DNA of 64,000 nt from contig OZ024741.1 in NCBI GenBank assembly GCA_964016885.1, positions 217,434,001 to 217,498,000 on the forward strand, read 5' to 3'. A program made the translations under genes and the position numbers. Of the stretch, positions 1 to 61,313 are shown in pieces (the first letter of the stretch is position 1; each line of letters opens with the position of its first letter). The DNA comes from Eledone cirrhosa. Its lineage: Eukaryota. Below the pieces are notes generated by a model. The model worked only from the letters and a program-made list of their open reading frames with translations, did no database searches and had not been told where the DNA came from.

Positions 1-181
1 AGTATTAGTATGCATATAAATACACACATGTATACATATGTACATGTACTCAGTTTTTCACTAGACACTTTACAGTGAGTGTCAGCTAGTCTGTATGTAA
101 CCACACAGACGGACCGGGTTTTAGAGTCATACGAGTTTTCAAGGAAACACATTTCCTCTATTCTCCAGAGGGCCAGACAGG

Positions 182-226
182 AATATTGGACTAGTTTCGA
201 TGTTGTTACATCTCATCAGCAATATT
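182..226 (-). ncRNA. Minimal type I hammerhead ribozyme (family a)
   Basis: Minus strand reads aatattg-CTGATGA-gatgt/aaca/acatc-GAAA-CTAG-TC-caatatt. This gives a 7-bp stem I, intact core, 5-bp stem II, palindromic ACTAGT helix III and a GUC cleavage triplet. Confidence 0.9.
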
Positions 227-347
227 TACCCATCTTCCCGGCTTCTCTGTGTATATGTATACATGTGTGTATTTATATGCATACTAATACTTCCGTATAC
301 ATATGTAGATGTACACTTTAAAATTTGGCTTCGTTTATTAAAGGTGT

Positions 348-402
348 ACTGCTATATATATTTCGGTGACAGCCATCCTTGGCTGTGACCTCTTCAGGCA
401 GT
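348..402 (-). ncRNA. Type I hammerhead ribozyme (family b)
   Basis: Minus strand reads actgc-CTGAAGA-ggtcacagcca/agga/tggctgtcacc-GAAA-TATATA-TA-gcagt. Stem I is 5 bp, stem II is 10 bp with one C.C mismatch, helix III is palindromic, and the triplet is AUA. Confidence 0.88.
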
Positions 403-599
403 CCGAATTGGTGTGGTAGAGACAGGCACACATGTTGTTGAAGTGTTTAACTCCGTCAACACTCCGATATGCCCAGTTCCTGGTTGGGTTGTTATTTCTC
501 TGAGGAACAGGAATCATATGAATTCGAATAAACGAATTTCGGCGTCAAAGGACACTCTCTCCTCCCATTGGTCAGTTGTGAGAACATTCATCATATATT

Positions 600-2108
600 T
601 ATATAGCACCCTTGACAATGGTACCTTCGTATTTTGTACCTTAGCCAAATTCTATAATGTGTATCTGGGTAGTTAACACCCAAGACTAGCCGTACAATAA
701 ATACCTTGGTATTTAGCATCCTAGACTAACTCTACAATGTGTATCTGGGTATTTAGTACCTTAACATATGCCTACAAGGTATACCTGGGTATGAGCACCC
801 TTGGCAATCAATACAATATATACTTAGACATTTAGCAACATAAACTAGTCCTACAATGTGTACCTGGGTATTTAGCACCCACGGCTAACAATACAATGTG
901 TGCCTGAGTACTTAGCACGATAGACAAATCCTAACATGTGTACCTAGGTATTTGGCGGGTTAGGCTAGCTCTACAATATGTACCTGGGTATTTGGCGTTC
1001 TAGACTAACTATACATTGTGTAACTGGGTATTTAGCACACTAGACTAATTCTACAATGTGCTTGTGTATTAAGTGTCATTGATTAGCCCTACAATATGTA
1101 CCTTGGTGATTAGCATACATGGCTAGCCTTACAATGAGTACCTGAGTATTTAGCACTCTTGACCATCTCTGTGGTGTGTACCAGGATATTTAGCAACTTA
1201 GACAAACCCTATAATGTGTACTTGGGTATGTAGTGTCCTAGGCAAGCGCTACAATATGTACCTGGATATTTATCACCAAAGGCTATCCCTATATTGTGTA
1301 CCTGTGTATTTAACACCCTAGACACACTCTACAGTGTGTACCTGGGTATTTAGCATCTAACGCCAGCCCTACAATGTCTATCTGTGTATTTAGCACCCTA
1401 GACTAACCCTGCAATATGTACCTGGGTACTTAGCACCCCAGACAAACCCGACAATGTGTAGCTGGGTATTAAGAACCCAAGGCTAGCCCTACAATGTGTA
1501 CCCGGGTATTTAGAACTCAAGGCTAGTCTTACAATGTGTACCTTGGTATTTAGCGTCTTAAGCTAGCTCTACAACGTGTACCTGGGTATTTAGCACCCTA
1601 GATTAGTCCTACAATGTGTACCTAGGTATTTAGTACCCTAGGCTAGCCTTACAATGTGTACCTGGGTATTTAGTACCCTAGGCTAACCCTACAATGGGTA
1701 CCTGGGTATTTAGTACCCTAGGCTAGCCCTACAATGTGTACCTGGGTATTTAGTACACAATGTTAGTCCTACAATGTGTACCTGGTATTTAGCACCCTAG
1801 ATTAGTTCTACAATGTATACCTAGGTGTTTAGTACCCTAGGCTAGCCCTACAATGTGTACCTGGGTATTTAGTACCCTAAGCTAGCCCTACAATGGGTAC
1901 CTGGGTATTTGGTACCTTAGGCTAGCCCTACAATGTGTACCCCAGTATTTAGTACCCAATGCTAGTCCTACAATGTGTACATGGTATTTAGTACCCTAGG
2001 CTAGCCCTACAATTGCTACCTGGGTATTTAGTACCCTAGGCTAGCCCTACAATGGGTACCTGGGTATTTAGTACCCTAGGCTAGCCCTACAATGGGTACT
2101 AGGGTAAT
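600..2108. repeat. 40-bp minisatellite (ctacaatgtgtacctgggtatttagtaccctaggctagcc), about 37 units
   Basis: Clear 40-nt periodicity. Units are degenerate at the left end and more homogeneous at the right. Confidence 0.93.
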
Positions 2109-2149
2109 TAACAGCCAAGGTTCTCCCAATTAATTCCTCTAATTAAGAT

Positions 2150-2265
2150 AATTGTTTCTACTTTTTGGCACAAGGCCAGCAAATACCCAGTACATTACTG
2201 GTACTTTATTTTATCGACCCCGTAAGGATGAAAGGCAAAGTTAACCTCGGCGGGATTTGAACTCT
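2150..2265 (-). mobile_element. tRNA-derived SINE fragment (same family as 26059-26233)
   Basis: Reverse complement matches gagttcaaatcccgccgaggttaactttgcctttcatcc...aaagtaccag...aaagtagaaac and includes the B box. Confidence 0.8.
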
Positions 2266-2366
2266 TCTAATTAAAATAATCTCAGTTTAGTAAGTTGACA
2301 AACCTAGTTTTTCACTCTTTCTGACCACACTAGGAACATCACTAAGTTAGCATTTTCCACTACACA

Positions 2367-2407
2367 GACCACTACTACCACTTCTACTACCACCACCACC
2401 ATCATCT

Positions 2408-2441
<34 letters not shown>

Positions 2442-2469
2442 CACCACCACCACCACCATCACCACCACC

Positions 2470-2528
<59 letters not shown>

Positions 2529-2548
2529 GATCATCATCACCAACATAT

Positions 2549-2600
<52 letters not shown>

Positions 2601-2626
2601 CACCACCACTACCATCACCAACATCT

Positions 2627-2657
<31 letters not shown>

Positions 2658-2908
2658 CACAATCATCATCACCAACATCTCTACTACTACGACTACTACT
2701 ACTACTACTACTACCACCACTACGATCACCATCCCAACATCTCTACTACTACTACTACCACCACTGCCATCATCATCACCGTCTCTACTACTACTACTAC
2801 TACCACTACCATCACCATCACCAACATCTCTACGACTACTACTACCACTACTACTACTACCACTACGATCACCATCCCAACATCTCTACTACTACTACTA
2901 CCACCACC

Positions 2909-2946
<38 letters not shown>

Positions 2947-2958
2947 CATCACCAACAT

Positions 2959-2997
<39 letters not shown>

Positions 2998-3036
2998 CAC
3001 TTCTACTACCACCACTACCATCCCCATCATCAACAT

Positions 3037-3069
<33 letters not shown>

Positions 3070-3090
3070 CCCCCACGACTATTACTCCTG

Positions 3091-3129
<39 letters not shown>

Positions 3130-3140
3130 TTACTATAACA
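2367..3140. repeat. Compound (ACT)n/(ACC)n trinucleotide repeat
   Basis: Seen directly. It produces the poly-Val and poly-Ser pseudo-ORFs in the track. Confidence 0.95.
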
Positions 3141-3419
3141 ACTAATGTATGGTATTAATTTAATATTTGAAATACTGTATCCCCCCCTCTATATATATAT
3201 TAATTAAAATAACAGATTAAAGTTTAAGCAAAGAATCGCTGCTTTCACCCTTAACGGGATCTTGTTTTATAAATATTTGCTCTAGGGTTCTTATATATTT
3301 GATATATATTTACCCTTATCGAGCCCTCTTTGCATTTTACGCTTCACATTTATTACTATATAAATATATATTATTCAAAATATTAATAAATGAAGACGTT
3401 CACATAATCAAAATATATG

Positions 3420-3481
3420 TTTTATTATACATATTTCGGAGGTACTGTGGTGTTTTTTCAGTACGTCCTCATCAGATAAAA
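3420..3481 (-). ncRNA. Type I hammerhead ribozyme (family c)
   Basis: Minus strand reads ttttat-CTGATGA-ggacgtactg...cagtacctcc-GAAA-TATGTA-TA-ataaaa. Confidence 0.85.
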
Positions 3482-3593
3482 TACATAAATTGGTGTACAA
3501 CATACCTCAACTGTCTTGATGGTTTAATTTCAGTCTTGGCAGTGAAATTAAACCATCAAGACAGTTGAGGTATGTCGTACATCAATTTATGTA

Positions 3594-3656
3594 TTTTATC
3601 TGATGAGGACGTACTGAAAAAAACAGCACAGTACCTCCGAAATATATATAATAAAA
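3594..3656 (+). ncRNA. Type I hammerhead ribozyme (family c)
   Basis: ttttat-CTGATGA-gga c gtactg/aaaaaaacagca/cagtac c tcc-GAAA-TATATA-TA-ataaaa. Confidence 0.88.
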
Positions 3657-3852
3657 CATATATTTTGATTATGTGAACATCTTTATTAATATTTTGAATA
3701 ATATTAATAACTCCAGAAAACTTTTATTTGTTGAGTGCTTTGAATCTATTGTAAAACTATATTCATTGAGTAATCAATGAACTTTATTAACATTTAGTTA
3801 TATATATATATATATATACTTTTTCCTATATATATATATATATATACTTTTT

Positions 3853-3903
<51 letters not shown>

Positions 3904-3968
3904 AACCTACATAGAGCACTCTATTTTCCTGGACCTTTCCGACGGAATTACTTCATTCATACATACAT

Positions 3969-4345
3969 TTTGTTTTTGAAATGCGCATAATAAAATACAT
4001 GGAACTCTTTTAACCATCTTTTGTTCTTATATATATATATATATATATTATGCGCATTTCAAAAACAAATATCATCATGCAATAATATTTGTGTTTTCAT
4101 CAGATAAAATAGGAAGACATGATATGAAGGTTAAAAAACACTTGTGGATAGTGCAGTTTTAAATCAACATAGTTGATAGTTATTGCATGATGATATTTGT
4201 TTTTGAAATGCGCATAATAAAATACATGGAACTCTTTTAACCATCTTTTGTTCTTATATATTATGTACACTCCAGTCCTACAAACTGTAGAGTGCTTCTT
4301 AACCGATATCTGCATTGCTTTATTGTACTACAATAAAACTCACCT

Positions 4346-4348
<3 letters not shown>
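3969..4348. mobile_element. Rearranged and inverted copies of hammerhead element family d
   Basis: 4048-4170 matches 50040-50165 directly. 4180-4348 is the reverse complement of about 49915-50080. An extra 3'-half fragment lies at 3969-4030. Confidence 0.8.
4046..4109 (-). ncRNA. Type I hammerhead ribozyme (family d), stem I partly truncated
   Basis: Minus strand reads ttttat-CTGATGA-aaacacaaatatta...tgatatttgttttt-GAAA-TGCGCA-TA-ata, then (TA)n. Confidence 0.75.
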
Positions 4349-4417
<69 letters not shown>

Positions 4418-4474
4418 AAACGGAAAAAATGAAACGAAATTTCATTTCCCACTCTTAGTACGGCTGTTACTTAA

Positions 4475-4916
4475 ATATAAGTATGTACACGTACATACAT
4501 ATATGTATACAGACGTACAGTCATGTATACAGGAACACATATATATATGTACGTATGGATTCACAGAACATTTATTATAATGCTCGGTGTGTTTGTAAAC
4601 AAACATCCCGTATTAAGCCGTAGTGTCTAGCAACCATCGTTGCTCGTTTGTTCAACACTGACAAAGGAACGCTGTACTAGTTTCAAGCTTATTAGCTATC
4701 GTCAGCAACGTATACCTTCTTGTCAGTGTTGAACAAACGAGCAACGATGGTTGCTAGACACTACGGCTTAATACGGGATGTTTGTTTACAAACACACCGA
4801 GCATTATAATAAATGTTCGGTGAATCCATACGTACATATATATATGTGTGCATGTATGTATATATATATATACATACTACTGTACATCTGTATACATATG
4901 TATGTACGTGTACATA

Positions 4917-4924
<8 letters not shown>
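4475..4924. repeat. Long inverted repeat (arms 4475-4664 and 4720-4924) with a hammerhead in the spacer
   Basis: The arms are near-perfect reverse complements, e.g. caacactgacaa/ttgtcagtgttg and cccgtattaagccgtagtgtctagc/gctagacactacggcttaatacggg. Confidence 0.92.
4669..4711 (-). ncRNA. Minimal type I hammerhead ribozyme (family e)
   Basis: Minus strand reads acgttg-CTGACGA-t agct/aata/agct t-GAAA-CTAG-TA-cagcgt. The triplet is GUA. The first stem II pair is mismatched. Confidence 0.8.
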
Positions 4925-4975
<51 letters not shown>

Positions 4976-4980
<5 letters not shown>

Positions 4981-5254
4981 GGTTAAACAAGGTTCAATGA
5001 ATAAATCAAAGAATGAATTTTACAATAGATTGGAAGCACTCAACAAATAGGTTTTCCGGAGTTATTAATATTAATTCAAAATATTACTATGACTGAATCT
5101 TAACCATCTACTATGTCAGGGTATATCATGCATCATCTTATTTTATCTGATGAGGACGTACTGTTGAAGATAGCTCAGTACCTCTGAAATATGTATAATA
5201 AAATATACTTGATTACACGAATGTCTATTTTTGTTAATATTTTGAATTAATATA
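4976..5254. mobile_element. Diverged family c hammerhead element with an inverted 3' part
   Basis: 4976-5086 is the reverse complement of about 3686-3795. 5100-5254 matches 3549-3705 directly. Confidence 0.75.
5141..5203 (+). ncRNA. Type I hammerhead ribozyme (family c)
   Basis: ttttat-CTGATGA-ggacgtactg/ttgaagatagct/cagtacctct-GAAA-TATGTA-TA-ataaaa. The loop differs from other copies while the stems are kept. Confidence 0.83.
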
Positions 5255-5653
5255 TATATATATAGTAATAATAAATGTGTGTGTGTATGTGTTGCCCGTC
5301 ATTTTTTTTCATATATCCCTATCTTCATTCCCAAGTGTGAACCCTATAAGACTGTTTTTGCATCTGTTGGTATTTGTTTATTATTTAACTAAGAATTTAT
5401 GTATATTAAAAGCCATTATGAATGAATGAGAGAACAAAAGAATGAATGAATGGTTTGATGAATGAACGAGTGGCTGACTGAAAAGCAGAATTAGTGAATA
5501 AGTGAATGGCAGAATGAGTTTAGTTGATATAATTTTGTTGCATCATTCCACCATCTGTTGTCAACAAAGATGTTCTTTCTGAATTAAATACATTTTTATT
5601 TCCGAATCCGAATATCGGTTTAATGACGTAAACACATTCCGGAACAGAAAGTA

Positions 5654-21845: not shown

Positions 21846-21950
21846 CTTAGAAGCAGCAGTGGTTTCAGGTAGTTTTGTGTGAAAAGAATTAAAATCTGTT
21901 CATTTTCTTTCTCTGTGTCTTTCAGTGGGTCTCTCATGTAAATTCTAGGG

Positions 21951-22130
21951 ATGGTTAAACAGAACAGCCAAGCTGAGTTAGTGAAATGTGTTATTGTTGG
22001 TGACCCTGGTGTTGGTAAGACCTGTCTGATCTGTGCATGGGCCTCTGGAGTGAAGTACTGCCTCAATGAACTGGTCAAGACACATGTGGCCACAGTGTGG
22101 GCCATTGACCACTACAGGACTGATAGAGAG
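21951..22130 (+). CDS. RhoBTB: RhoBTB-family atypical Rho GTPase, first coding exon
   Basis: MVKQNSQAELVKCVIVGDPGVGKTCLICAWA...THVATVWAIDHYRTDRE carries the P-loop and the RhoBTB-specific THVxTVWAID motif. An upstream acceptor ttcag ends at 21925. The donor is GAG|gtaagc (phase 0). Confidence 0.92.
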
Positions 22131-22179
22131 GTAAGCTTGATTTCACCTTTTACTTTCCTAACATTGACATTAGGAAGGA

Positions 22180-22580
22180 TGTGAGTGACTGGATGATGGG
22201 ATTAGAGACTGGGATGGATGTTGTGTAGGGAAGTGGAATCAGATGGTTGGGTCATGTGTTGAGGAATAGAGCCAGTGATGAATGTTGTGAAGAGAAATAG
22301 AATGAGATGGTTGGGTCATGTGTTGAGGAAGAATGAAAGTAACTGGGTAAGAGGAGTGATGGAAATAAATGTGGAAGGAAGTAGAGGAAGAGGGAGACCA
22401 AGAAAGACATGGTTAAAGATGATGGAGGAAGAAATGAAAGCTTGGGATTTGACGAGGAACCATGCAGATAATAGGGACAAAATCGTAAAGCTTGTCGTGG
22501 AACCCTGCAAGGCTAATTTCTGCTTTAGTAAGAAAAATGGCTGGCTTTAAAATTCTTCTTGTTGCTGCTATTGTTGTTAT
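22180..22580 (+). mobile_element. RTE LINE 3' fragment in intron
   Basis: RNRMRWLGHVLRK...GSRGRGRPRKTW. The segment agatggttgggtcatgtgttgaggaa is internally duplicated. Confidence 0.75.
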
Positions 22581-22785
22581 TACTATTGTCTAACCAATTG
22601 TGGAAATGGGTGAGGAGAAAACATAATAGGTGAGTGAGTGTTGACAGAAATGATAGAGCATTGGACTAGACCTTGTGGTGTTTATTCTTGATCCCTTGTC
22701 TTCTGAGTTCAGACCCCACTAAGATCAACATTGCTTTTTTATCCATCCAGGGTCAATAAACAGCAGTTTCTGCTTCATCTGTTAA

Positions 22786-23100
22786 ATGCTGCATAGCTTG
22801 AAGATCAGAGATTCACTCCAGGTAGAGCTGCTACTTCTCCGAATTGAGAGATTACAGCTCCGATACTACAGATATGTGGTTAGAATGTCTCGGGGAAAAA
22901 AAATTGCTGGACAGATTTTATGGGCGAAACTAACTGGCAGGAGACCCAAGCAAGATGGTTGGATAACATCAATGAGTTTAGCTGGTCCCACTTGGAAACC
23001 CAGCCGAATCAGCTGGAAATGGTTGGTTCTGACAGGACGCGCTGGAAGGTGTGTTTGAGGACTCTGCCCCCATGACCCTCTCAGGAAAAAGCAGATGAAG
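22786..23100 (+). mobile_element. Degenerate RTE-group LINE 3' fragment
   Basis: LLLRIERLQLRYYRYVVRM...GRRPK. Reverse-complement similarity to 11960-12210. Confidence 0.65.
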
Positions 23101-23312
23101 GAGAAGGGTCAATAAGTAAAATACCTGTCCATGGTGAAAGACTGACAGAGTTGTTAGAGCATTAGATAGATTACCTTGTATTCCATCTCTGTGTTCTGAG
23201 TTCAAATCTCACCCAGCTCAACATTGACTTTTTATCCTTCCAAGTAACAGTCCAGGGTACCTTATGGTATTTAATCCTTAGGGGTTTTTTTTTTGTTTTT
23301 CTTTTTTTCCAG

Positions 23313-23416
23313 ATTCTGGAACGTTCTTGGATTGATGTAGATGGCGCTTGTGTATCTCTACGACTGTGGGACACTTTTGGTTACCATGACAAAGACAGAA
23401 GGTTTGCTTATGGAAG
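23313..23416 (+). CDS. RhoBTB: RhoBTB coding exon 2
   Basis: Polypyrimidine tract plus ccag| acceptor. [34 protein letters not shown](R) matches the RhoBTB motif [19 protein letters not shown]. The donor is AG|gtaaat (phase 2). Confidence 0.95.
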
Positions 23417-23859
23417 GTAAATGTCATCTCACACGCACATATATATACTTACACCTAGACACATACACACACATTCAGGCATAAAAACACACATTCATGC
23501 ATAAACACACACATTCATGCATAAACACACACATACATATATAAACCCACACATACATACACAAACACATAATTACAAAAACACATGCACACATACACAC
23601 ACATACATATATATTCGTACATGCATACATACACAAATGCTCACACATGTACACAAACGCTTACACAAACACTCACACATATACACAAACACACAAACAC
23701 TCTCTCAAACACACACTCACACATACACAAACATATTTTCAGCTGGATGCCCTTCCTAATGCCAACCACTTCACAGTGTGTATTGAGAAGCGTTTTATCC
23801 TGCCCTAGTCTCTCCACATTGAAAAGTAACATACTTTTAAAAGATTCAAGTTTGCTCAA

Positions 23860-25110
23860 CATCATCATCATCATTCTTTAACATACATTTCTCCTGGCTA
23901 GCATGGGTTAGATGTGTTGTCCAGTTGTGAGACAAGCCAGATCGGATGACCATGTCTTGCTCATACAGGGCTGATTTTGATTTGGTTTCTACCACCAACC
24001 TTCCTAACACCAACCACATTTATGGGCTGGGTGGTTTTTGTTGTGATACCTACACTACCACTTTACAGTGTGTACTGGGTGCTTTTTGTCATGACACCTA
24101 CATGACCATTTTAAAATGTGTACTGGGTGCTTTTTGTCATGCTACTTTCCGAACCACTTTACAGTGTGGGCTGAGTGCTTTTTGTCATGACATTTACTCG
24201 ACCACTTTACAATGTGTACTGAGTGCCTTTTGTCATGACACCTACACGACCACTTTACAGTGTGGACTGGGTGCTTTTTTTGCCGTGACACCTTCATGAC
24301 CACTTTACAGTGTGGACTGGGTGCTTTTTGTTGTGACACCTACAGGACCACTTTACAGTGTGGACTGGGTGCTTTTTTTTGCCGTGACACCTACACGACC
24401 ACTCTACAGTGTGGACTGGGTGCTTTTTTTTGCCGTGACACCTACACGACCACTCTACAGTGTGGACTGGGTGCTTTTTTTTGCCGTGACACCTACACAA
24501 CCACTTTACAGTGTGGACTGGGTGCTTTTTGTTGTGACACCTACAGGACCACTTTACAGTGTGGACTGGGTGCTTTTTTTTGCCGTGACACCTACACGAC
24601 CACTCTACAGTGTGGACTGGGTGCTTTTTTTTGCCGTGACACCTACACGACCACTCTACAGTGTGGACTGGGTGCTTTTTTTTGCCGTGACACCTTCATG
24701 ACCACTTTACAATGTGTACTGGGTGCCTTTTGTCATGACACCTACACGACCACTCTACAGTGTGGACTGGGTGCTTTTTTTGCTGTGACACCTTCATGAC
24801 CACTTTACAGTGTGGACTGGGTGCTTTTTGTTGTGACACCTACAGGACCACTTTACAGTGTGGACTGGGTGCTTTTTTTTGCCGTGACACCTACACGACC
24901 ACTCTACAGTGTGGACTGGGTGCTTTTTTTTTGCCGTGACACCTACACGACCACTCTACAGTGTGGACTGGGTGCTTTTTTTTGCCGTGACACCTACACA
25001 ACCACTTTACAGTGTGGACTGGGTGCTTTTTGTTGTGACACCTACAGGACCACTTTACAGTGTGGACTGGGTGCTTTTTGTTGTGACACCTACATGACCA
25101 CTTTACAATG
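23860..25110 (-). repeat. Tandem array (48-52 bp unit, about 22 copies) expanded inside an RTE-type 3' tail
   Basis: Unit is gacacctacacgaccactttacagtgtggactgggtgctttttttgccgt. The left flank is a (CAT)n tail plus gcatgggttaga...ccttcctaacaccaaccacattta, as in the RTE 3' UTRs. Confidence 0.9.
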
Positions 25111-25148
25111 TTATTTGTTTAAATATGTTTATTATTTTTCTGTTTCAG

Positions 25149-25340
25149 GGCTGATGTTGTAATCCTGTGCTTCAGTGTAGTGAAGCCTCCATCCTTGATC
25201 AATGTCAAGAAAGTGTGGCTACCTGAAATACGTACATATTGTCCTACAACTCCGATAGTTCTGGTTGGTACACAAGCTGATATGAGATACCTCTACAACA
25301 CTGAAGTCTATCAAAACCTTGAGAAAGGGTTACTTTACAG
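25149..25340 (+). CDS. RhoBTB: RhoBTB coding exon 3
   Basis: tttcag| acceptor is phase-compatible with exon 2 (AG+G = Arg). It encodes ADVVILCFSVVKPPSLINVKKVWLPEIRTYCPTTPIVLVGTQADMRYLYNTEVYQNLEKGLLY(R). The donor is AG|gtaata. Confidence 0.95.
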
Positions 25341-26242: not shown

Positions 26243-26304
26243 TTTTATTATATATATTTCAGAGGTACTGTGGTGTTTTTTCAGTACGTCCTCATCAGAT
26301 AAAA
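26243..26304 (-). ncRNA. Type I hammerhead ribozyme (family c)
   Basis: Minus strand reads ttttat-CTGATGA-ggacgtactg...cagtacctct-GAAA-TATATA-TA-ataaaa. Confidence 0.85.
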
Positions 26305-26715: not shown

Positions 26716-26746
<31 letters not shown>

Positions 26747-29700
26747 GTAAATATCTTTAAGTCGTTTAGAAGCCTCGACAATGCAAATGGGTAAATCTCC
26801 GGGTAACAAGATCCGGTGGTGGAGAGAGAGATGTAAGTGGGTGTACGTTGAGATGCGTGGTGTGTATAAGACGTGTAGAAGAAAGAAGGAAAGAGTATAA
26901 AGGATAAAATAAAAATAAGAACACGAGAGAGAGTTACCTTGGGAGAGATTTAATTGTCCCTATATATTTCGGATTCACATCCATCAACTGGGGTTTTTTT
27001 CCGGGGTGGGGGAAAGGTTGTCTGTTGGAAAGGTGCGAAACGCATCCTCCGCTGTTTGTTGTTTTGAATATCTGAGGTATTCAGCAGAGCGCGCGTGCGC
27101 ATGAAATGGGGTCGGTCGGGCAGAGGTCAGCGGCCGAAGTAGTTCTTTCAATTGTGGGAGTGGGGTGGCGCTAGCTGTTAGTCCATAGTATTCTCTGTCT
27201 GTTTGGTGAATGTTACTGTGTGTGTGTGTGTGTGTGTGCGTGTGTTGTTGTCTCGCTTGAGTGTGTGTGTGTGTGTTGTTGCCTTGTTCCTCTGTATTGG
27301 CAGTGTAGTATGTTCGTATGGTGGAATGCTACTGTGTGTGTGTGTGTGTAGTTGTCTCGTTTGTGTGTGCGTGTGTTGCTGCATCGTTTGTTAACTAAAA
27401 CCAGCCACCTCATTTCGCTTCTCTCGGATCGATTGTTTATTTGCGGTGCAAGGCGTTTGATAAAAAGCGCTTCCTTGATACGTAACGTGGCGACGTTTCT
27501 TTCAGTCGCTAGAATTGTGACAATGGGCCTTCCGTCTTTGTTTCCGCATTTGTCTATGTGTTTCCGGAAAGACGAGGCCCTGGTTTTAGTGTATTCCTTG
27601 ATCCGGATGTGCAAAGGTCGGATTGTGCTACCTATATAGTATTGGTTGCACCTGTCACATTCTATCTTATACACGACGTATGTGCGTAGGCAACAGTTCG
27701 CAGTGCGTATCGGGCAGTCTCTGAGGGAGCGCGCGTCAGTAGATTTCCCGGGTTTCCTGGAGAGGCATCTTCGCAGGGAGGGGTCCGAGTGGGCCAGGTG
27801 GATGTCGAGGCTCTCCCTCCGTATAGCCTTGCGGATAGCGTTGGTGGTATTCTCGCCCAGGTGTGGCATTTTAAGGAAGCACTTGCCTTGGGTGCCTCTC
27901 TGTCTCTTGTGTCTGGTGTCTCCTACTCTCTCAGTGAGCGAGGTAGGGTACCCGTTTGTCTCCAGCACCTCGAGGAATCGCTTGGTATGAGTGACACCAC
28001 TCGCGGGATCGCTGCATCTGTTTTTGATTTGCGCGATCTCGTTCGTGATGTATCCTCTTTTGGCACTGTTAGGGAGGGCGGACTTGTAGTGAACGAACAG
28101 GTTCCTGCAGGCTGCTTTTCGGTAGAAGTTGCAGTGGATCCTTCCCTCTTCCGTGATGTTGATTCGGAAGTCGAGGAGGGCAAGTGACCCGTCTTCATTG
28201 GGGTGTTCAACACTGAAGTCAATGTTCTCGTCCGTGTTGTTGAATGTCTCATAGATTCTGTTCGCCGTGTCTTGGGAAGATGTGAGGATGAGGATATCGT
28301 CCACGTACCTTGAGAAAAAGGCGACGGCGTTGGGGTGGCAGGCGTCGAGTGCCTTGTGCTCGAGGTTGTCCATGTAAGATGTCGCTAGCACACCCGACAG
28401 GCTTGATCCCATGGGCCATCCCGAGGTTTGTTGGTATGTTTGGTCAAGGAATCCGAAGTAGGTGTTGTCGACGATGATGGATAGGTGGATGTCAGTGGTG
28501 GTGAGCCCGAAGCAGTGTAGGTCGGTGGTTTGGACGCGTTCCATCAGTATATTGACGGCCGGGAGTGCCGGGACCGAGGTGGAGAGAGCGACTACATCAA
28601 GGCTGAAGGCATATCTGTTATTCCTTCTGGTGTCAGGATCCATTTGATGCAGGCGCTTCAACACCTCCTTGGAGCTGTTAACGTGTCCCGGTAAGGTGTC
28701 TAAGATGGGTTTGAGTATTCTGGCTAGGAGCCATGAAATTTTGTAGAGTGGTCCCTCCATGCTCGATACAATGGGCCTGATCTTCAGGTCGAGTCCCTGT
28801 TTATGTGCTTCCTTAAAATGCCACACCTGGGCGAGAATACCACCAACGCTATCTGCAAGGCTATACGGAGGGAGGGCCTCGACATCCACCTGGCCCACTC
28901 GGGCCCCTCCCTGCGAAGATGCCTCTCCAGGAAACCCGGGAAATCTACTGACGCGCGCTCCCTCAGAGACTGCCCGATACGCACTGCGAACTGTTGCCTA
29001 TGCACATACGTCGTGTATAAGATAGAATATGACAGGTGCAACCAATACTATATAGGTAGCACAATCCGACCTTTGCACATCCGGATCAAGGAACACACTA
29101 AAACCAGGGCCTCGTCTTTCCGGAAACACATAGAGAAATGCGGAAACAAAGACGGAAGGCCCATTGTCACAATTCTAGTGACTGAAAGAAACGTCGCCAC
29201 GTTACGTATCAAGGAAGCGCTTTTTATCAAACGCCTTGCACCGCAAATAAACAATCGATCCGAGAGAAGCGAAATGAGGTGGCTGGTTTTAGTTAACAAA
29301 CGATGCAGCAACACACGCACACACAAACGAGACAACTACACACACACACACACAGTAGCATTCCACCATACGAACATACTACACTGCCAATACAGAGGAA
29401 CAAGTCTACTGTTCCTCGTGAGGAGGTTGTATCTCAGCTTCTTCGGGAGCTTCCACCGGTCGCAGATGTTGGTCCAGGCGGCGTTGATGTGCTCTTCTCT
29501 CTGCGCGGGAGTGATTCCCGTGACCTTGGAGTAGAGGTTGTCATCGTCAAGGTGTTGGAGGGCCAGGGTGTTGTAGGCCTCTCTGCTGATGACGCAGAAT
29601 TCTTTTCCCTTGTCGGAGGGGAGATAGATGAGGTTCTTCGATTTTAGGTTGGAGAGAGTGGTGAGTTGAGATTTGGTGAGGTTATGTGTTGTGCGTGTGT

Positions 29701-30876
29701 GTGTGTGTTTGAGAAGTATATCCGAGGTGGAGTGTTTTAGCCTGATGAGTTTAGTGTCGAGTTCGTGGTTGGTGGGTGGGGGGTGGAGTGGGTTGTCGGG
29801 GTGGTAAGTGGAGAACTTGGGGTGGGTTGTGTGGGCGCTGTTATTTTCTGTGGTGCTGTTGATGGCGGTCACCCATTTAAGTTGGTAAGCGGCTCAACAA
29901 AAGTTGGCCTCGATGTTGAGTTTGAGTCTGTCGTCGAGACGTGAGACGATGAACTTGGGTCCGAGGTGTAGGAGTTTCAGCTCGTCGCTCGTGAGAGTGC
30001 CGGTTAGGTCGGTGACCAGGTGCATCGCATCGTTGAGATGTGGCTCGGTGTTGGTGGATGCGGCGGTGGCGGTTGTTAAGTTGTTGTTTTCCACGTGGTT
30101 CTGGTCCGTCTGTTCGTTAGTGTCGATGTTCTCGTTGTGGCGTTTCGACAAGATCCACTCATATTTTCGCTTGAGCCGTTTTTTCTCGTATTGGACTCTG
30201 GAGTGGTAGCATTGGTCAATTGCTTTAGTGATTTTCAGGAGCAAGTCCCCTGGTGCTATTGGCAGTCGATGTGTCCGCTCTGAGAGTGTCCGCTTATGGA
30301 CGTGTAATTGGCGGTTGAGATGTCTCAGGATCTGTTTAACACACGTGCGATGTATGCGGTTAGTGGTGTTTTGGAATGCTGGTGTACGTAGGCTTACTGG
30401 TAAGCGGATGTTCCTGATGGTGTTGGGGATGACATCGTTTTTTAGGCAGCGTTTCAGGAAAATAATCTGACAGCCAGCGTTGGCCCATTTCTCCGACAGT
30501 CTAAACCGTTCCCTTACGGTTGCAAACAATTCCTGGCTCAGGTGTAAGGATAAAAGAGTATTGAAGTTTGCTTGAAGCATTGTGGAATAATAGGTAAATA
30601 TCTTTAAGTCGTTTGGAAGCCTCGACAATGCAAATGGGTAAATCTCCGGGTAACAAGATCCGGTGGTGGAGAGAGAGATGTAAGTTGGTGTACGTTGAGA
30701 TGCGTGGTGTGTATAAGACGTGTAGAAGAATGAAGGAAAGAGTATAAAGGATAAAATAAAAATAAGAACACGAGAGAGAGTTACCTTGGGAGAGATTTAA
30801 TTGTCCCTATATATTTCGGATTCACAGCCATCAACTGGGGTTTTTTCCGGGGTGGGGGAAAGGTTGTCTGTCGGAA
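26747..30876 (-). mobile_element. Near full-length Penelope-like retroelement (RT + GIY-YIG) with direct pseudo-LTRs, disrupted
   Basis: Pseudo-LTRs at 26747-27030 and 30594-30876. RT motifs are LPSDKG, IRPIVS, FSLDVVAL, GWPMGSSLS and RYVDD. The endonuclease motif is VVYKIECDRCNQYYIGST. There is an in-frame TGA at 29894 and an inverted insertion at 28805-29404. Both flanks are (TA)n. Confidence 0.95.
28805..29404 (+). repeat. 600-bp inverted duplicate of 27283-27882 (GIY-YIG region) inserted into the PLE RT
   Basis: The peptide CFLKMPHLGENTTNAI...YYIGST...QYRGT appears on both strands with only a few substitutions. Confidence 0.95.
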
Positions 30877-30887
30877 TATATATATAC

Positions 30888-33192: not shown

Positions 33193-35119
33193 TCTATATA
33201 TATAAAACAGAGGATGTGTGTTTGTCTGTGTGTGTGGATGCTACATTATTCGAGGTTGGCGTCTACACCGCTCGCCCGATCTCGCTCAAATTTGCATACA
33301 TCACTCCTCATGACCCTTTACATTGCTTAGGCTACTTTGTTTTTTGATAGGTTCCCCCCCCCCCCCCCCGGGGCCCGCAGTCCACCTTTTTGTCTATTTT
33401 GGGTGAAATCGGGAGATGAGGTTGCATTTTATGCACGCGTGAAAAATTTTTCCTTTTGAGTTTTTTTACCTGGTTTTTTGCTAATATGGGTAGAATAGAG
33501 TCTAAATTTTGTTGACGTGCTCGAATCATTTCGAAATTCGGTCGAGAGTGAAGCTCGAGGTCAAATCTCCACTTCGTATATAGAGAGACAGGAATAACAG
33601 GTCTTATAGTAACATTACCTTCCCCTTCCCCCTTCTTTAGAGCGAGAGAGAGGAAGATAGAGAGAGAAGTTTTGGGTGTCACAGAAATATTACATTCCCC
33701 TCTCCACTTTGGTCAGTGAGCGAACCACTGTTGCTATAGTAACATTACCTTCCCCCCCCTTCTTTATTGAGCGAGGAATATAGAGAGACGTTGTTGGTGC
33801 TACAGTAACATTACCTTCCCCTCTCTACTTACTTTGGTCTTTGAGACCGAGGGAACCACTGTTGCTATAGTTACAGCTTCACGTGACACAAACCAGTTCC
33901 TGCCAGTTCTGACCACCTGGCACCAGTTGAGTCAGTTTTTGCTTTCTTTCGGTCGAGAAGTGGACAAATTTTCACCTTGAATCAAAAAAAAAATTTCATG
34001 GACGGCTGGAGGTGGCAGCTTTTATTCTGTTTTGGCAAGACTGCTATCAAAAAATTCTGCAGACTCTTATCGTTGATTTGAGTGGCCTGCAAAGCTTTGG
34101 TTTTCAAACGCTACACTTGCTACTTGGTTAGGCTACTGTGTAGACGTGTGCTTCACTCTCACTGCATTACATTTTGTGACCTCGCTTTCGGACTTTGCCA
34201 TTCCCAGTACGTTTTTTGTTTACTTTTTTCTTGCTTAAAATTGTAACAATTTGTCACTTTTTTTTACCTTCCCCAAAATACTGCTTATCACCTTCGCTTT
34301 TTTGCCTTTGCTCTAAACCTGCTTCCCCTTTACTGTTTACTGTACTATTGCAACCATGCCACTGAAAAGAAAGAGTACCCTTAGCCGTAGGAAAACATCG
34401 TCTGTTGTTTCAAAAAAGAGGCGATTGAATGAGCAGTCTACGGATGCCGGACTGCATTTTTGGCCACAAACCCCTTTTACTTCGCTTTCAAACTTAAGTA
34501 CCCCTAGCACAGCCCAACCCAGCGCCTCTCTATCTACGGTTACCGCTTCGAATCGTGCCATTCGTAATTGTCAGAATGCAGTTGCAACAGCTGTCTCTAG
34601 GGCAGCAGAGAGTGACAGCCAAAGAGCTCTTCGTAGGGCTAGGAATGCTGCAACAACTGCTGCTGCAAGGGCCTCCAAAACTAAACAGCAAACAGCCACC
34701 AGACGGTCAAAGAACGCTGCTTCAACCGCTGCCTCCTGTGCCGCAGAAACCGACCAGGAGACAGCCATCCGAAGGTCCAAGGACTCCGCCTCCAAGGCAG
34801 CTGCCAGAGCATCCCAGACCGAGATACAGACAGCCATCCGAAGGTCCAAGAACTCCGCCACCACCGCAGCTGCCAGAGCATCCCAGACCGAGATACAGAC
34901 AGCCATCCGAAGGTCCAAGAACGCTGTATCCACCGCCGCCTCCCGTGCCGCAGAACATCAAACAGCCCGCCGTGCTCGGTTGGACACAATTCTATTATCA
35001 TTACAACTTTGACATATTTTATGTAAAGTGAATATGAGAAAAAAAATTCTTCATATTTATTGTTTCCTAATCTGAATAAAAACAGCAGTAACCCGGGCAA
35101 AGCCGGGTCATTCAGCTAG
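33193..35119 (+). mobile_element. Internally deleted Helitron retaining the RepHel N-terminus
   Basis: 5' end is A|TCTATATATATAAAA. The 3' hairpin acccgg-gcaaag-ccgggt is followed by CTAG|T. It contains ORF 34356-35012. Confidence 0.88.
34356..35012 (+). pseudogene. Truncated Helitron RepHel N-terminal ORF (basic NLS-like start plus 22-aa repeats)
   Basis: MPLKRKSTLSRRK...KKRR is followed by repeats of RASQTEIQTAIRRSKNSATTAAA. This resembles animal Helitron N-termini. No HUH or helicase motifs are present. Confidence 0.7.
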
Positions 35120-39209: not shown

Positions 39210-41487
39210 AAGGATAACTTCGATACTAACCCTAAAATTAGATTAATATGTCCTTCTAAGTCCGATATAGGTAGGATTAGTAAGTACATATTAGATCGTA
39301 TTATCCCCCATGTTAAGGCTAAGGTAGATATTAAATTATGGGGTAATACTCACCAGGCAATAAGATGGTTCAATAACATTAGGGACAAAAACAAATTTTA
39401 TTCAATTCGATATAGATGAATACTATTCCTCTATTTCACCCGAAACCCTGCATAAGGCCCTCTCTTTCGCTAAGACTAACTCGGACCTCACAAACGAGGA
39501 AATTAATATTATACTTGAAGCTAGACGCACAGTAATGCACTTTGAAAATAGTTATTGGGTCCGCAGGGATAGACCCTCGGAATTCGACATTACGATGGGT
39601 TCTAATGATTCGGCGGAGGTCACGGATTTGGTTGGGATCTATATAGCCCATAGACTCCAGAGCGAATTTACGGACCTCCACGGCGGAATATACCGCGACG
39701 ATACACTTCTATTAGTCAAGAATATGAACAAACAAAACCTAGAAAGGCGACGTAAAAACATTAGGAAACTTTTCTTAGAACTAGGGCTTAATATTACCTT
39801 TGAACACAATCTTAAGGTGGTCAACTTCTTGGATGTCACCTTCAACCTTAATAACGGTAATATAGAGCCATTTCACAAACTTAATGAAAATCTAAAGTAC
39901 GTTAATGTAAAATCGAACCATCCTCATTCCATTATTAAATCTATCCCTAAAAATATATCCATAAGGATCTCCCGACTGTCGTCTAATTTGCAGACCTTCA
40001 ACGAGCATGCTGAATATTATAATGACACACTTAGAAAAGCTGGTTACTGCGAGAAAATTGAATATCTAGACGATAACCACATAAGTACTATGAATAAAAC
40101 ACATCTAAGTCAAACTAGTATTGCACCACACACACACACATCAATAGGCATACTAACAGGTGCAAACCAGCAAATAGAGTCAGACGTAGAGAGTACATAT
40201 GGTATAACCCCGTGTACAATTCTTCTATTAGCACTAAGATTATCTCACAATTCTATACACTAATCAATAAACACTTTACAACTTCACATAAATACTATAA
40301 AATCTTTAACTCGCGCACCATTAGACTCTCATACTCCACTGCACCTAACATAGAACAACTAATTAGAAAACTCAACTCAGCAATACTGAATAAGTACATC
40401 CCTAATGACTCAGCGCACCAGCATAGCAACATGCAACGCACTAACACGCAACCACAACCCCACCAAACTATCCAGGATTCTACTGCAAAACATAAAAATA
40501 GTTGTAACTGCACCAAACCAGGTACGTGCCCACTGAATAACCAGTGCCTAGCACGCAATATTGTCTACCGGTGTACAATAAATTCCGGGACCAACAAATG
40601 GTATTACGTCGGATGTACCGCAACTTCTTTCAAGGCTCGCCTATACCAACATCGATCTTCGATCAGGCACGAGAAAATGCGCTCCGTAACAACCCTCGCC
40701 GATAAAGCCTGGCAGCTTCGGAGGAACAATCAAGCGTTCTCCCTTGATTGGCAAATTATTGCAGCTGCGCCTGCATATCAGCAAAATCATCGATTCTGCA
40801 TGTTATGCAATTTAGAGATATACTGCATTTTAACGTCGGTAAACAAACTTTTGAACAGCAAAATTAAACGTTCTCTATACTGTAACCATCGTTTGAAAAT
40901 GACTTTTTCTTTTTTTAAATGCATATAATGTTACCTTTTTACACCAACGTTTGCAAATTTCTGTCTGTTTATACACTAGATATGGCTTTCTATAATAATA
41001 GTACTAAACACTGTTTTTCTGGACCCCTTTAGAAATAACCTGCTACTATAATAGCCCTGATAACTTGTCTGAGACATTGTACCACTTTGACCCCTCTAAC
41101 TAAATTTTGTCCAATAGAAGTATCTACTTCCCAGCCAACCTTAGCACGCCTCATTAAGCTAACTGCTGCCAAAACATTCTCTCTTCACAATCTCTACTAG
41201 TCTGACAGTCTTAAACCCTAAGACTCCCTCCACCTTACTCACTTCGCTCTTCCCCTTCTCCTCCTACCTCCTTCTTTATCTTTTATCTAGTGTATAAAAT
41301 ATTTTCATATCATTCTAATACAAAGGTCTGATGACATGGTGTGTTGGCTTACAGTGTACTTTCGGTTTTTGATAATATTTGTGTATTATTCAAATAGCCA
41401 GGTATAGGTAACTCATACACTATAGAAACAATTGTTACCTAATAAATTCTATATACCCGCATTTCCATTTCGTAAATTTTTTCTCCA
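39210..41487 (+). mobile_element. 5'-truncated Penelope-like element of the Naiad type (RT + GIY-YIG), frameshifted
   Basis: Motifs are [72 protein letters not shown]...YYVGCT..FKAR and CMLC. Frameshifts lie near 39395 and 40135. The stop is at 40928 and both flanks are (TA)n. Confidence 0.92.
41324..41440 (+). ncRNA. Type I hammerhead ribozyme with a very long stem II in the PLE 3' pseudo-LTR (family f)
   Basis: aggt-CTGATGA-catggtgtg...(about 90-nt stem-loop)...tacactata-GAAA-CAATTG-TT-acct. TATAAAA lies about 30 nt upstream and AATAAA immediately downstream. Confidence 0.8.
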
Positions 41488-56362: not shown

Positions 56363-58030
56363 ATCATCATCATCATCATCATCACCGTTTAACGTCCGTG
56401 TTCCACGCTTGCATGGGTTTGGACGGGGGTAGTCCCACTTGAGGCAAGAGTGATTGTCTTGCTCGCATAGGAGGGGGTGGTGTGGATGGGGTGGGGGTGG
56501 TGGGACAGGGGTGTATTTTGTTAGATGCCTACTGGCTGTAGTAGGTTTTACTATGTATTTAGGTAAGGCGGGTCTTCTCTGTTACTGAGTACCGCCAAAG
56601 GTCTCGGTCCAGTGACATTGTCTTGGAGAGGTGTAAGTGTGTGAGGTCGGAGTTTATCAGCTCGTCCCAGGTTTTTCTGGGTCTGCCTATTCCGTGGCTA
56701 CCGTCTATCTTTATTGCCCTGCACTTTGTTATACAGCTATCGACTTTCATGCGCATCACGTGTCCATACCAACGTAGCCTTCTCTCGAGTAAACAACATC
56801 TGATCCCTCTTAGTTCGTTTATGCTTTGCCGTTCACGTATATTATTGTTACACATCCAGCGGAGCATGCAAGCTTCGTTCCTCTCTAGTCTGCGTATATC
56901 CTCTGCACACAATTCCCAGGTCTCACTGCCATGCAACATTGCTGTTCGTATGCAGGCATCGTACAACCTGCCTTTCATTTTTAGGGAGAACCCTTTAGTG
57001 GCTAATAGTGGTATAAGCTCTCTGAACTTTTTCCATCCAGTTCTGACTCTAGCTACTGTACTTTCAGAGCACCCTCCCACACTGCTGATTTTGTCACCCA
57101 GGTAACGGAAGCTGTCCACTATTTCTATAGAGCCCTCTGCGCAGTTGTAAGAGCTAGTATTTGTGGGCACTTGCTGCTACTTATTGCACCAGAGCACCGG
57201 CCACATGTAAAATCTATGTTCTTAGTTAGCTTACCTGTGATCCCACTACATCTTTTATGCACCCATACTTTGCATTTGGGACATAAAATGGAGTTTCTAC
57301 CTACGCCTTTCCTACACACTGAGCATGGCCATTTCCCGGAAGGGACCGGCGCCTTATTTTCTTTCCTACAAACTAGAACTTTAGTCTTAGCCAGGTTAAT
57401 TTTAAGGCCTTTTGATTCTAGGCCATGCTTCTATGTTTGGAATTTCTCCTCTAGCTCGACCATTGATTCAGCTATGAGAGTTAGGTCGTCTGCGTATAGG
57501 AGTTCCCATGGGCAGCCGGTCTTGAACTCCTCTGTTATAGCCTGAAGGGCAATAATAAATAGTAGGGGGCTGAGAACAGAGTCCTGATGGACGCCAACTT
57601 TTACGCTAAACTCTTCACTATATTCGTTGTTAATTCTAACCTTGCTAACTGTTTCTTTATACATGGCTTGTATAGCTCTCACAAGCCATTCGTCGACACC
57701 TAGTTTTCTAAGGGCCCACCAGATAATCGAACGGGGGACTCTGTCGAAGGCTTTCTCCAAGTCGACAAAAGCTAAGTAGAGGGGTTTACCTTTAGCTAGG
57801 TACTTCTCCTGTAGTTGTCGTACAATGAAAAGAGCATCTGTGGTACTTTTGCCTGACACAAACCCGAACTGCATTTCATCTAGGTCAATTCTCTCTCTGA
57901 TTAGTTGCGCTATTACTTTTTCCGTGACCTTCATGACCTGGTCGATTAATTTAATGCCTCTATAGTTACTCCTATCTAGGGCATCTCCTTTACCCTTATT
58001 ACAGTTAACGATGATGCTGCTATGCCAGTC
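56363..58030 (-). mobile_element. 5'-truncated RTE LINE, subfamily B
   Basis: RT motifs with stops and frameshifts, a deletion in the 3' UTR, and (CAT)n on the + strand. Confidence 0.93.
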
Positions 58031-58043
58031 ATATATACATATG

Positions 58044-58074
<31 letters not shown>

Positions 58075-58127
58075 GTATATATATATATATATGTATATAT
58101 ATATGTATATATATGGCTTAGCTTTTG

Positions 58128-58160
<33 letters not shown>

Positions 58161-58227
58161 GGCTTAGCTTTTGTATATATATGTATATTTATGTATATAT
58201 ATATTGGCTTAGCTTTTATCGACTTGT

Positions 58228-59866: not shown

Positions 59867-59908
59867 TATATATATATATATGTATATATATATATGTGTA
59901 TATATATG

Positions 59909-59941
<33 letters not shown>

Positions 59942-59956
59942 GTATGTATATATATG

Positions 59957-59987
<31 letters not shown>

Positions 59988-60002
59988 GTATATATATATA
60001 TG

Positions 60003-60047
<45 letters not shown>

Positions 60048-60048
60048 G

Positions 60049-60146
<98 letters not shown>

Positions 60147-61153: not shown

Positions 61154-61195
61154 TATATATATATATATGTATATATATATATGTGTATATATATG

Positions 61196-61228
<33 letters not shown>

Positions 61229-61243
61229 GTATGTATATATATG

Positions 61244-61274
<31 letters not shown>

Positions 61275-61275
61275 G

Positions 61276-61309
<34 letters not shown>

Positions 61310-61313
61310 TATA

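Follow-up and report, generated by a model that had tools for sequence, protein, structure and literature searches.

The seven hammerhead ribozyme sites in the first 5,254 positions of a 64,000-nucleotide stretch of the Eledone cirrhosa genome (GenBank assembly GCA_964016885.1, contig OZ024741.1, positions 217,434,001 to 217,498,000 of the forward strand; hereafter, the window) belong to six insertions from five families, A to E, the sixth insertion (F, site 5141) being a diverged subfamily of family C (78-79% identity). We consider it likely that all six, i.e., four truncated 3' ends of Hydra-clade Penelope-like elements (PLEs) and two tandem retrozymes, were written into (TA)n tracts by a Penelope-type reverse transcriptase (RT)-endonuclease (EN). 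The marks of insertion bear on two open points: the enzyme that moves animal retrozymes, and the origin of PLE tails and inverted ends. An identical rule, one long and one short end, holds for five families in this one genome and gives exact predicted start sites. If the reading is true, the insertions are direct genomic footprints of retrozyme mobilisation and of the origin of PLE tails and inversions.

DNA searches of the genome yielded 1460 first-look candidates for family A, 2250 for B, 2685 for C, 198 for D and 1285 for E, with 40 scored per family. Using 198 merged stretches (1.22 Mb), the loci of which are top-scoring matches and not a random sample, we surveyed insertion ends and head-to-head junctions. 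In every family, the 3' ends flanked by (TA)n are concentrated at two fixed sites with 56-93 nt between them: a long end, set to 0, and a short end at -69/-74 in A, -56 in E, -89 in B, -93 in C and -82 in D. The TA-flanked ends divide into 21 long and 21 short of 43 in A, 22-24 and 15 of 40 in E, 20 and ~10 of 33 in B, 29 and 23 of 52 in C, and 33 and 19 of 55 in D. Among 86 head-to-head junctions, 72 combined a long with a short end, one was long+long and none was short+short; nine had one end elsewhere and four ran off the stretch. The long+short combination thus accounts for 72 of the 73 classifiable junctions, compared to about half expected under independent choice. For A and E the corresponding numbers (36 junctions) are 25 long+short, no long+long, no short+short, seven with one end elsewhere and four off the stretch, so that all 25 classifiable junctions follow the rule. 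The A/E arms break at unrelated positions of the unit (for example, 342 versus 189 or 136 versus 376), the shorter side comprises up to three units, and the arms are joined mostly with an overlap of 1-5 nt or a gap of a few nucleotides. The identity between arms of the same insertion, compared to arms of different insertions, was 0.993 versus 0.968 in A, 0.971 versus 0.948 in C and 0.988 versus 0.965 in D (the between-insertion pairs are not independent), and this similarity suggests that both arms come from one RNA or one source locus. The predicted cut sites are located 133-299 nt upstream of the long genomic end; therefore, cleavage would not set the insertion ends.

Families B, C/F and D (five of the seven sites) are identified by their upstream continuation as truncated 3' ends of Hydra-clade PLEs that encode an RT and a GIY-YIG EN. 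Most B, C and D copies are short; the PLE parents were detected by tblastn with the PLE proteins of the window, and extended C and D loci were picked for upstream continuation. Family B continues upstream into an untranslated region (UTR) of ~1.1-1.5 kb and then into GIY-YIG and RT; RT, EN and B are co-oriented in 14 of 25 loci, and at locus L275 B flanks the open reading frame (ORF) on both sides, as expected of pseudo-long terminal repeats (pLTR-ORF-pLTR). At locus L271, a 741-aa RT+EN ORF has D downstream and an inverted D upstream, and EN was found upstream of D in four of six extended loci. RT+EN lies upstream of C in two of eight extended loci (L262 and L268), and 12 of the 29 listed loci with the C sense-arm pattern have an upstream UTR in common. 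The motif definitions for the Hydra clade, as well as its (TA)n targeting and hammerheads, are given in the relevant passages of PMC8557442. All four motifs (RWK, DKT, the CxCx5C linker and CxxC before a conserved E) are present in the B parent (L275), DKT, CxCx5C and CxxC in the D parent (L271), and CxCx5C and CxxC in the C parent (L262), the 5' part of which is absent. The B, C and D insertions also have the traits of the clade, namely a (TA)n target, a tail on one end and an inverted 5' copy.

These parents change the status of the units, which the first-pass annotation took for small non-autonomous families mobilised by PLEs such as the two in the window. The description fits A and E (469 and ~420 bp) and fails for B, C/F and D. 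The proposed mobilisers do not fit either: the parent proteins of B, C and D match the second PLE of the window at ~25-58% per tblastn segment, and both window PLEs are read as not being parents of B, C or D. The same annotation had allowed that the units would lose their novelty as pseudo-LTRs of annotated PLEs; leaving annotation status aside, this applies to B, C/F and D, which have PLE parents, and not to A and E. Likewise, a suggested check of copy number and PLE linkage found all families to be high-copy, with linkage to PLE ORFs for B, C and D and none for A and E. Three other interpretations were rejected. Family C as a fixed palindromic element is an artefact of a palindromic query, and loci with the sense-arm pattern run into the shared upstream UTR. 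B, C/F and D are not short tandem retrozymes without an ORF parent, since they continue upstream into UTR, EN and RT. Direct repeats 3.8 and 4.4 kb apart are separate insertions or a local duplication and not pLTR pairs. By eye, the B, C and D tails have a common motif, ACUCC(A/G)G ... GU(A/C)GAGUG, right after the short end, which is absent from A and E and is a candidate recognition signal.

Judged from the genomic sequence, A and E are non-autonomous tandem non-LTR retrozymes of 469 bp and ~420 bp. The arrays range from 2 to more than 45 non-coding units with one type I hammerhead per unit, and have neither an LTR nor a linked ORF (a primer binding site and a polypurine tract were outside any separate search). 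The 469-bp units of A are in direct tandem, with 99-100% identity across many unlinked loci and an array of at least 23 units on contig C1; for E, contig C28 carries more than 45 units at 90-96% identity. The two families are distant homologues (77.6% over 76 nt, 71% across the hammerhead). The high identity within family A may mean that it is young enough to be perhaps still active, and it could be used as a template for an in vitro assay of the predicted start sites. A predicted helix spans the long-end junction and requires the sequence of the next unit: GAGUGGG/CCCACUC in E, GAGUGAG/CUCACUC in E variants (G-C to A-U), and GUGAGU/ACUCAC in A. It is part of the minimum-energy fold in five of eight cluster representatives; those of the two largest clusters (55 of 63 segments) are among the five. 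A and E are likely to be moved by a Hydra-clade enzyme.

The insertions extend from 110 nt left of the window to 321 (A), 317-593 (B), 3368-3799 (C), 3969-4349 (D), 4411-4926 (E) and 4976-5253 (F). C, D, E and F are consecutive and spaced mainly by (TA)n. The sites at 3420 and 3594 are two arms of a single C insertion. A and B meet at a TTTAA overlap at which both elements are trimmed, probably by deletion of a tract that was once between them. Between the A/B pair and the C-F chain there are a 40-bp minisatellite (621-2116) and a CAC/TAC triplet tract (2370-3140). The features are as follows.

1-249, minus strand: family A retrozyme sense arm, 5'-truncated 469-bp unit, 99.2% to a natural A unit; its long 3' end, with (TA)n after it, lies outside the window, 110 nt to the left
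182-226, minus strand: hammerhead A; helices I and II of 7 and 5 bp, helix III ACUAGU; cleavage predicted after GUC (C at 189)
253-321, plus strand: family A inverted arm; stops ~10 nt before the usual short 3' end, at the B overlap
317-593, minus strand: family B, 3' UTR/pLTR of a Hydra-clade PLE in truncated form, trimmed on its 3' side at TTTAA; 97% to other copies
348-402, minus strand: hammerhead B; helix I of 5 bp, helix II long, helix III AUAUAUAU; cleavage predicted after AUA (353)
3368-3545, minus strand: family C inverted arm; ends at the short 3' end and contains hammerhead 3420-3481
3543-3799, plus strand: family C arm; ends at the long 3' end with a tail of 93 nt, (TA)n following; contains hammerhead 3594-3656
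3969-4041, plus strand: family D fragment, from the 3' half of the hammerhead through the short end; apparently a flipped distal piece of the inverted arm
4046-4171, minus strand: family D inverted arm, bearing the damaged hammerhead 4046-4109
4180-4349, plus strand: family D arm; ends at the long 3' end and begins within helix II, hence without CUGAUGA
4411-4734, minus strand: family E retrozyme sense arm, 5'-truncated 420-bp unit; ends at the long 3' end and has hammerhead 4669-4711
4669-4711, minus strand: hammerhead E; predicted cut after GUA (4675)
4720-4926, plus strand: family E inverted arm; ends at the short 3' end (the long end is 56 nt further on); without hammerhead
4976-5089, minus strand: insertion F tail arm, tail and long 3' end only; 79% to family C over 4991-5089, with 4976-4990 assigned by eye
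5120-5253, plus strand: insertion F hammerhead arm; hammerhead, short 3' end, then (TA)n
5139-5205, plus strand: hammerhead F; predicted cut at 5197

The motifs were examined with a type I hammerhead descriptor in the order CUGANGA, helix II, GAAA, helix III, UH, helix I. It was matched by six of the seven sites: 182-226(-), 348-402(-), 3420-3481(-), 3594-3656(+), 4669-4711(-) and 5141-5203(+). A stricter first version recovered five, missing 4669 (U.U at the helix II base). The remaining site, 4046-4109(-), failed in both versions: it keeps both core boxes and helix II, and the 3' strand of its helix I gives way to (TA)n past ~3 pairs; it is a copy of a family (D) that has an intact motif at 50036-50106(-). 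Thus, of the seven intact hammerheads initially reported, six stand with their positions and strands, and one has lost most of helix I. The assignment to five families was borne out, even with 3420 and 3594 sharing one insertion and 5141 falling into a C subfamily; the same is true of the type I form with palindromic helix III (by the descriptor) and of its tie to PLEs (by the RT+EN parents). Matches are not expected by chance: among 1000 dinucleotide shuffles of positions 1-5300, 998 had no match and two had one. Beyond 1-5254, the descriptor matched two intact motifs in the window, 26243-26304(-) of family C and the family D motif at 50036-50106(-), and one in the 50 kb upstream of the window. 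Positions 1-5254 contain no protein-like ORF of at least 120 aa, only simple-repeat frames, in agreement with the earlier statement that no RT ORF lies near the cluster.

Covariation, another suggested check, was seen in the A/E clan (202 motifs, 48 distinct), where pairs 1-6 of helix I and pairs 2-5 of helix II are paired in 95.5-99.5% of motifs and both-sided, compensatory changes in helices I and II separate the A/E subfamilies; the independent events are few and the comparison has no tree control. Family E has U.U at the outermost pair of helix I as well as at the first pair of helix II. The recommended Rfam search agreed with the descriptor in part: the best hammerhead score was a sub-threshold match of 167-237(-) to Hammerhead_HH9 (31.4 bits, gathering threshold 52, E-value 5.3e-6), none of the 83 matches in 3350-5260 came from a hammerhead family, and among 150 listed of the 385 matches for the whole window there were solely sub-threshold miRNA-like ones. 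It follows that standard annotation would not show these motifs. Small PLE hammerheads reportedly cleave as dimers, a finding that is said to be that of Lunse, Weinberg and Breaker in 2017. Minimum-energy cofolds of two motif copies gave swapped helices, with a helix III dimer in B only, and were uninformative on dimer cleavage.

To place the cluster in the genome, exact patterns were used that fix the core and short flanks, leave the pairing of helix II free and include sister families. They matched 30,145 times for the A/E clan, 83,529 for the C/D/F clan and 10,079 for the B clan, with no matches for the reversed-pattern controls. This amounts to at least 123,753 hammerhead cores in 3.0 Gb, i.e., one per 24 kb or about 41 per Mb. 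For comparison, 126,247 hammerhead motifs are given for axolotl in the relevant part of PMC7229834, in a genome of 28.2 Gb according to that of Li et al. (bioRxiv 10.64898/2026.07.22.740005); the density in this genome is thus ~9 times that of axolotl, under different search rules. In a systematic sample of 40 stretches of 10 kb, there were 20 descriptor matches in 399.8 kb; among 80 tiles of 5.3 kb, 65 were empty, 11 contained a single match, two contained two, one contained three and one four, and five or more were never reached. The cluster has six in 5.3 kb versus 0.22 expected, ~27 times the genome mean, and by hand arithmetic a Poisson distribution predicts less than one such tile per genome. 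However, the motifs are clumped: locus L147 of the systematic sample has five in 10 kb, and locus L274, fetched for family D, has nine from four families in 7 kb. The cluster is a dense but not unique pile-up, an upper-tail case that is ordinary for this genome. The clumping probably results from shared (TA)n targeting, and no selection is needed. The genome joins the list of hammerhead-rich ones; it is the long+short rule of insertion and the density of motifs that merit further attention.

In the proposed mechanism, the enzyme would cut a (TA)n tract on both of its strands; of the resulting DNA ends, one would prime cDNA at the distal RNA start site and the other at a site 56-93 nt upstream; both cDNAs would end early and then join head to head via a few bases of microhomology. 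In A and E, both arms can hold several units and the long-end helix can form only across the unit junction; the template for these families would therefore be a circle or a read-through multimer. The ribozymes would trim or circularise the RNA, probably as dimers via the palindromic helix III, a mode of cleavage established for similar motifs (PMC7229834, PMC4209133). The (TA)n left on both sides of each insertion would provide new targets, and clusters would build up in this way. A Poseidon PLE studied in vitro, in the part of the report at issue here, has both target strands cut and extended, with two internal RT start sites defining the tail (Frangieh et al. 2024, PMC11167929). The long+short rule matches these two start sites, which suggests that the A/E arrays were inserted ready-made by PLE machinery. 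For the specific proposition that a Penelope-type enzyme inserted multi-unit A/E arrays by priming two cut strands at two fixed sites of a circular or multimeric RNA, we estimate the chances to be about even.

Several observations weigh against this reading. The palindrome was present in the queries for C and E and, in part, in that for D, and the "long" class allowed 17 nt of slack. In E the higher identity of arms within an insertion is weak (0.969 versus 0.960), B (n=2) does not show it, and the likeness could also come from gene conversion between arms. No autonomous parent of A or E was found: EN was upstream in none of 50 E motifs and in 5 of 95 A motifs, there from various PLE families. 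A pattern for other CUAG-type hammerheads gave 258 matches, and none of the 30 loci examined ties a new type to a PLE ORF. The A/E tails have nothing alignable with those of B, C or D, so that the partner enzyme need not be of the Hydra type. The junction helix is not the minimum-energy fold in three of the eight cluster representatives. Concerning cleavage, one of nine frog retrozyme dimers cleaved, as stated in the portion of Li et al. that deals with it (bioRxiv 10.64898/2026.07.22.740005), and the Poseidon hammerhead, by the corresponding account in PMC11167929, required protein to cleave and was not needed for insertion in vitro.

If the inverted arm instead arose by fold-back of a single cDNA, with the endonuclease then cutting the hairpin at the short site, the arms of one insertion would be expected to have private variants in common, as they do; the C and D arms often break at nearly the same position, and the tail is ascribed to endonuclease resolution in the pertinent passage of PMC8557442/bioRxiv 2021.04.23.441226. 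However, the A/E breakpoints are tens to hundreds of nucleotides apart in most of the 36 junctions, the C loci were chosen with a palindromic query, the D hot spot falls on an internal CATATG palindrome, and the tail in vitro, as described in the relevant part of PMC11167929, corresponds to two RT start sites. We regard fold-back as unlikely overall; it is possible mainly for C and D. Rather improbable is the scheme of Li et al. (2026), proposed for vertebrates, in which A and E would insert as monomers or small pieces, with PLE machinery handling the seed only and arrays growing by unequal crossing-over. The very long arrays (more than 45 units in E, at least 23 in A) are in line with it, and local expansion probably contributes. 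Conversely, the inversion in small insertions is flanked on either side by a multi-unit arm, each arm having a defined end and (TA)n, and A units are 99-100% identical over many unlinked loci.

Selection for a regulatory ribozyme array acting on the RhoBTB transcript could be suspected from the local density of ~27 times the genome mean and from the 80 sampled tiles, none of which reaches five motifs. The gene is presumably marked by RhoBTB-like coding exons on the plus strand near 21950 (the first detected), 23330 and 25130, within 21950-25290, recognised by their motifs. We consider this explanation very improbable: 3594 and 5141 are the only motifs on the RhoBTB strand, and 3594 is fully paired with the antisense arm in the predicted read-through fold of the C insertion, one long hairpin (-240.7 kcal/mol) that buries both C motifs (3420 and 3594). 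Furthermore, one motif is broken, the copies resemble ordinary family members, and other mixed clusters exist (L147, L274). It is hardly credible that the palindromes are miniature inverted-repeat transposable elements or foldback DNA transposons that carry hammerheads by chance, as their long near-perfect inverted repeats (3368-3710 and 4472-4926) and TA flanks might indicate. The arms are unequal, the centre varies between copies, and many copies lack the inversion; A and E form direct tandems, and B, C and D run on into RT+EN ORFs. The RT parents refute this origin for B, C and D, and the variable centres for A and E.

The preferred reading, insertion by a Penelope-type enzyme, can be set beside known systems, each comparison referring to the relevant passages of the paper named. 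Like the Hydra-clade PLEs of Craig et al. (2021, PMC8557442), the elements described here have a C-terminal GIY-YIG, RWK/DKT/CxCx5C, a hammerhead near the 3' end, (TA)n targets, 5' truncation, an inverted 5' copy and a tail on one end; unlike them, they have tails of 82-93 nt, compared to 30-40 nt there, and hammerhead-bearing ends in tens of thousands. That paper includes one cephalopod Hydra family, Hydra-1_Obim. With animal non-LTR retrozymes (Cervera and de la Pena 2020, PMC7229834), A and E share non-coding tandem units with one type I hammerhead, a GC content below 50% and a predicted circle that is highly self-paired; the one-pair helix III with a palindromic tetraloop in A and E resembles axolotl HHR_Amex1, and the U.U at the helix II base in E resembles HHR_Amex2. 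They differ in that A, at 469 bp, is just above the 150-450 bp range, no target-site duplication is readable within (TA)n, and PLE-type inversions and two fixed ends are present. The dependence of retrozymes on PLEs and their co-occurrence are also found in Li, Clavereau and Pollet (2026, bioRxiv 10.64898/2026.07.22.740005); the argument there draws on co-occurrence and on homology of pLTRs, for the most part in vertebrates (the 35 genomes described include no mollusc), and local tandem expansion is proposed, whereas insertion anatomy is the basis here and no pLTR homologue of A or E was found. Poseidon PAc (Frangieh et al. 2024, PMC11167929) is alike in its two internal RT starts, AT-rich targets and ends independent of hammerhead cleavage; it belongs to another clade, and the account there gives no strand difference in start site, in contrast to the near-constant long+short pairing here. 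For metazoan PLE hammerheads, Cervera and de la Pena (2014, PMC4209133) describe pairs of motifs on opposite strands with 100-700 bp between them, most motifs being remains of truncated PLEs. B, C and D resemble these hammerheads in their long helix II, short helix I and palindromic helix III; unlike the strict minimal form, the motifs here keep a small helix III, as do the Drosophila, rotifer and shrimp variants. Non-autonomous head-to-tail Chlamys elements and a PLE origin of retrozymes are already published, as far as the passages of this literature bearing on them go. No publication was found on these families or on a long/short rule in retrozymes, in a search that left most subscription papers, Repbase and Dfam outside.

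Elsewhere in the window, Pfam detected RVT_1 in two of nine proteins and no GIY-YIG family in any of the nine; the RT and EN domains of the Hydra-type PLE of the window remained undetected. This PLE (~39220-41440, plus strand) is of a family other than the B, C and D parents. At its end, 41324-41440(+), a motif resembling a hammerhead was noted by eye, in which ~90 nt separate CUGAUGA from GAAA, helix III is CAAUUG and a UU triplet is present; this motif is too long for the hammerhead descriptor. The other PLE, 26740-30880 on the minus strand, is DKG-type and not Hydra; it contains an internal inversion and pLTRs in direct orientation, and in the pLTR GAAA-UAUA-UA with a degenerate first core box was seen by eye. 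The merged loci contain further hammerhead families with helix III palindromes GAAC/GGAC, CCACUGG, CCAUGG, UGCA and CAUUAAUG, the GAAC type being downstream of a different PLE ORF in four of seven cases. Positions 700-1300 of locus L281 hold another short head-to-head family in (TA)n, with no hammerhead seen in the copies listed. A 231-aa frame at 34317-35012(+) with repeated RRSKN(A/S) units has no Pfam match and presumably resembles Helitron N-termini. Finally, 42500-62000 contains many RT ORF fragments of the long interspersed nuclear element type, which we take to be RTE-like, in both orientations and in partial tandems, together with a PHD-finger match.

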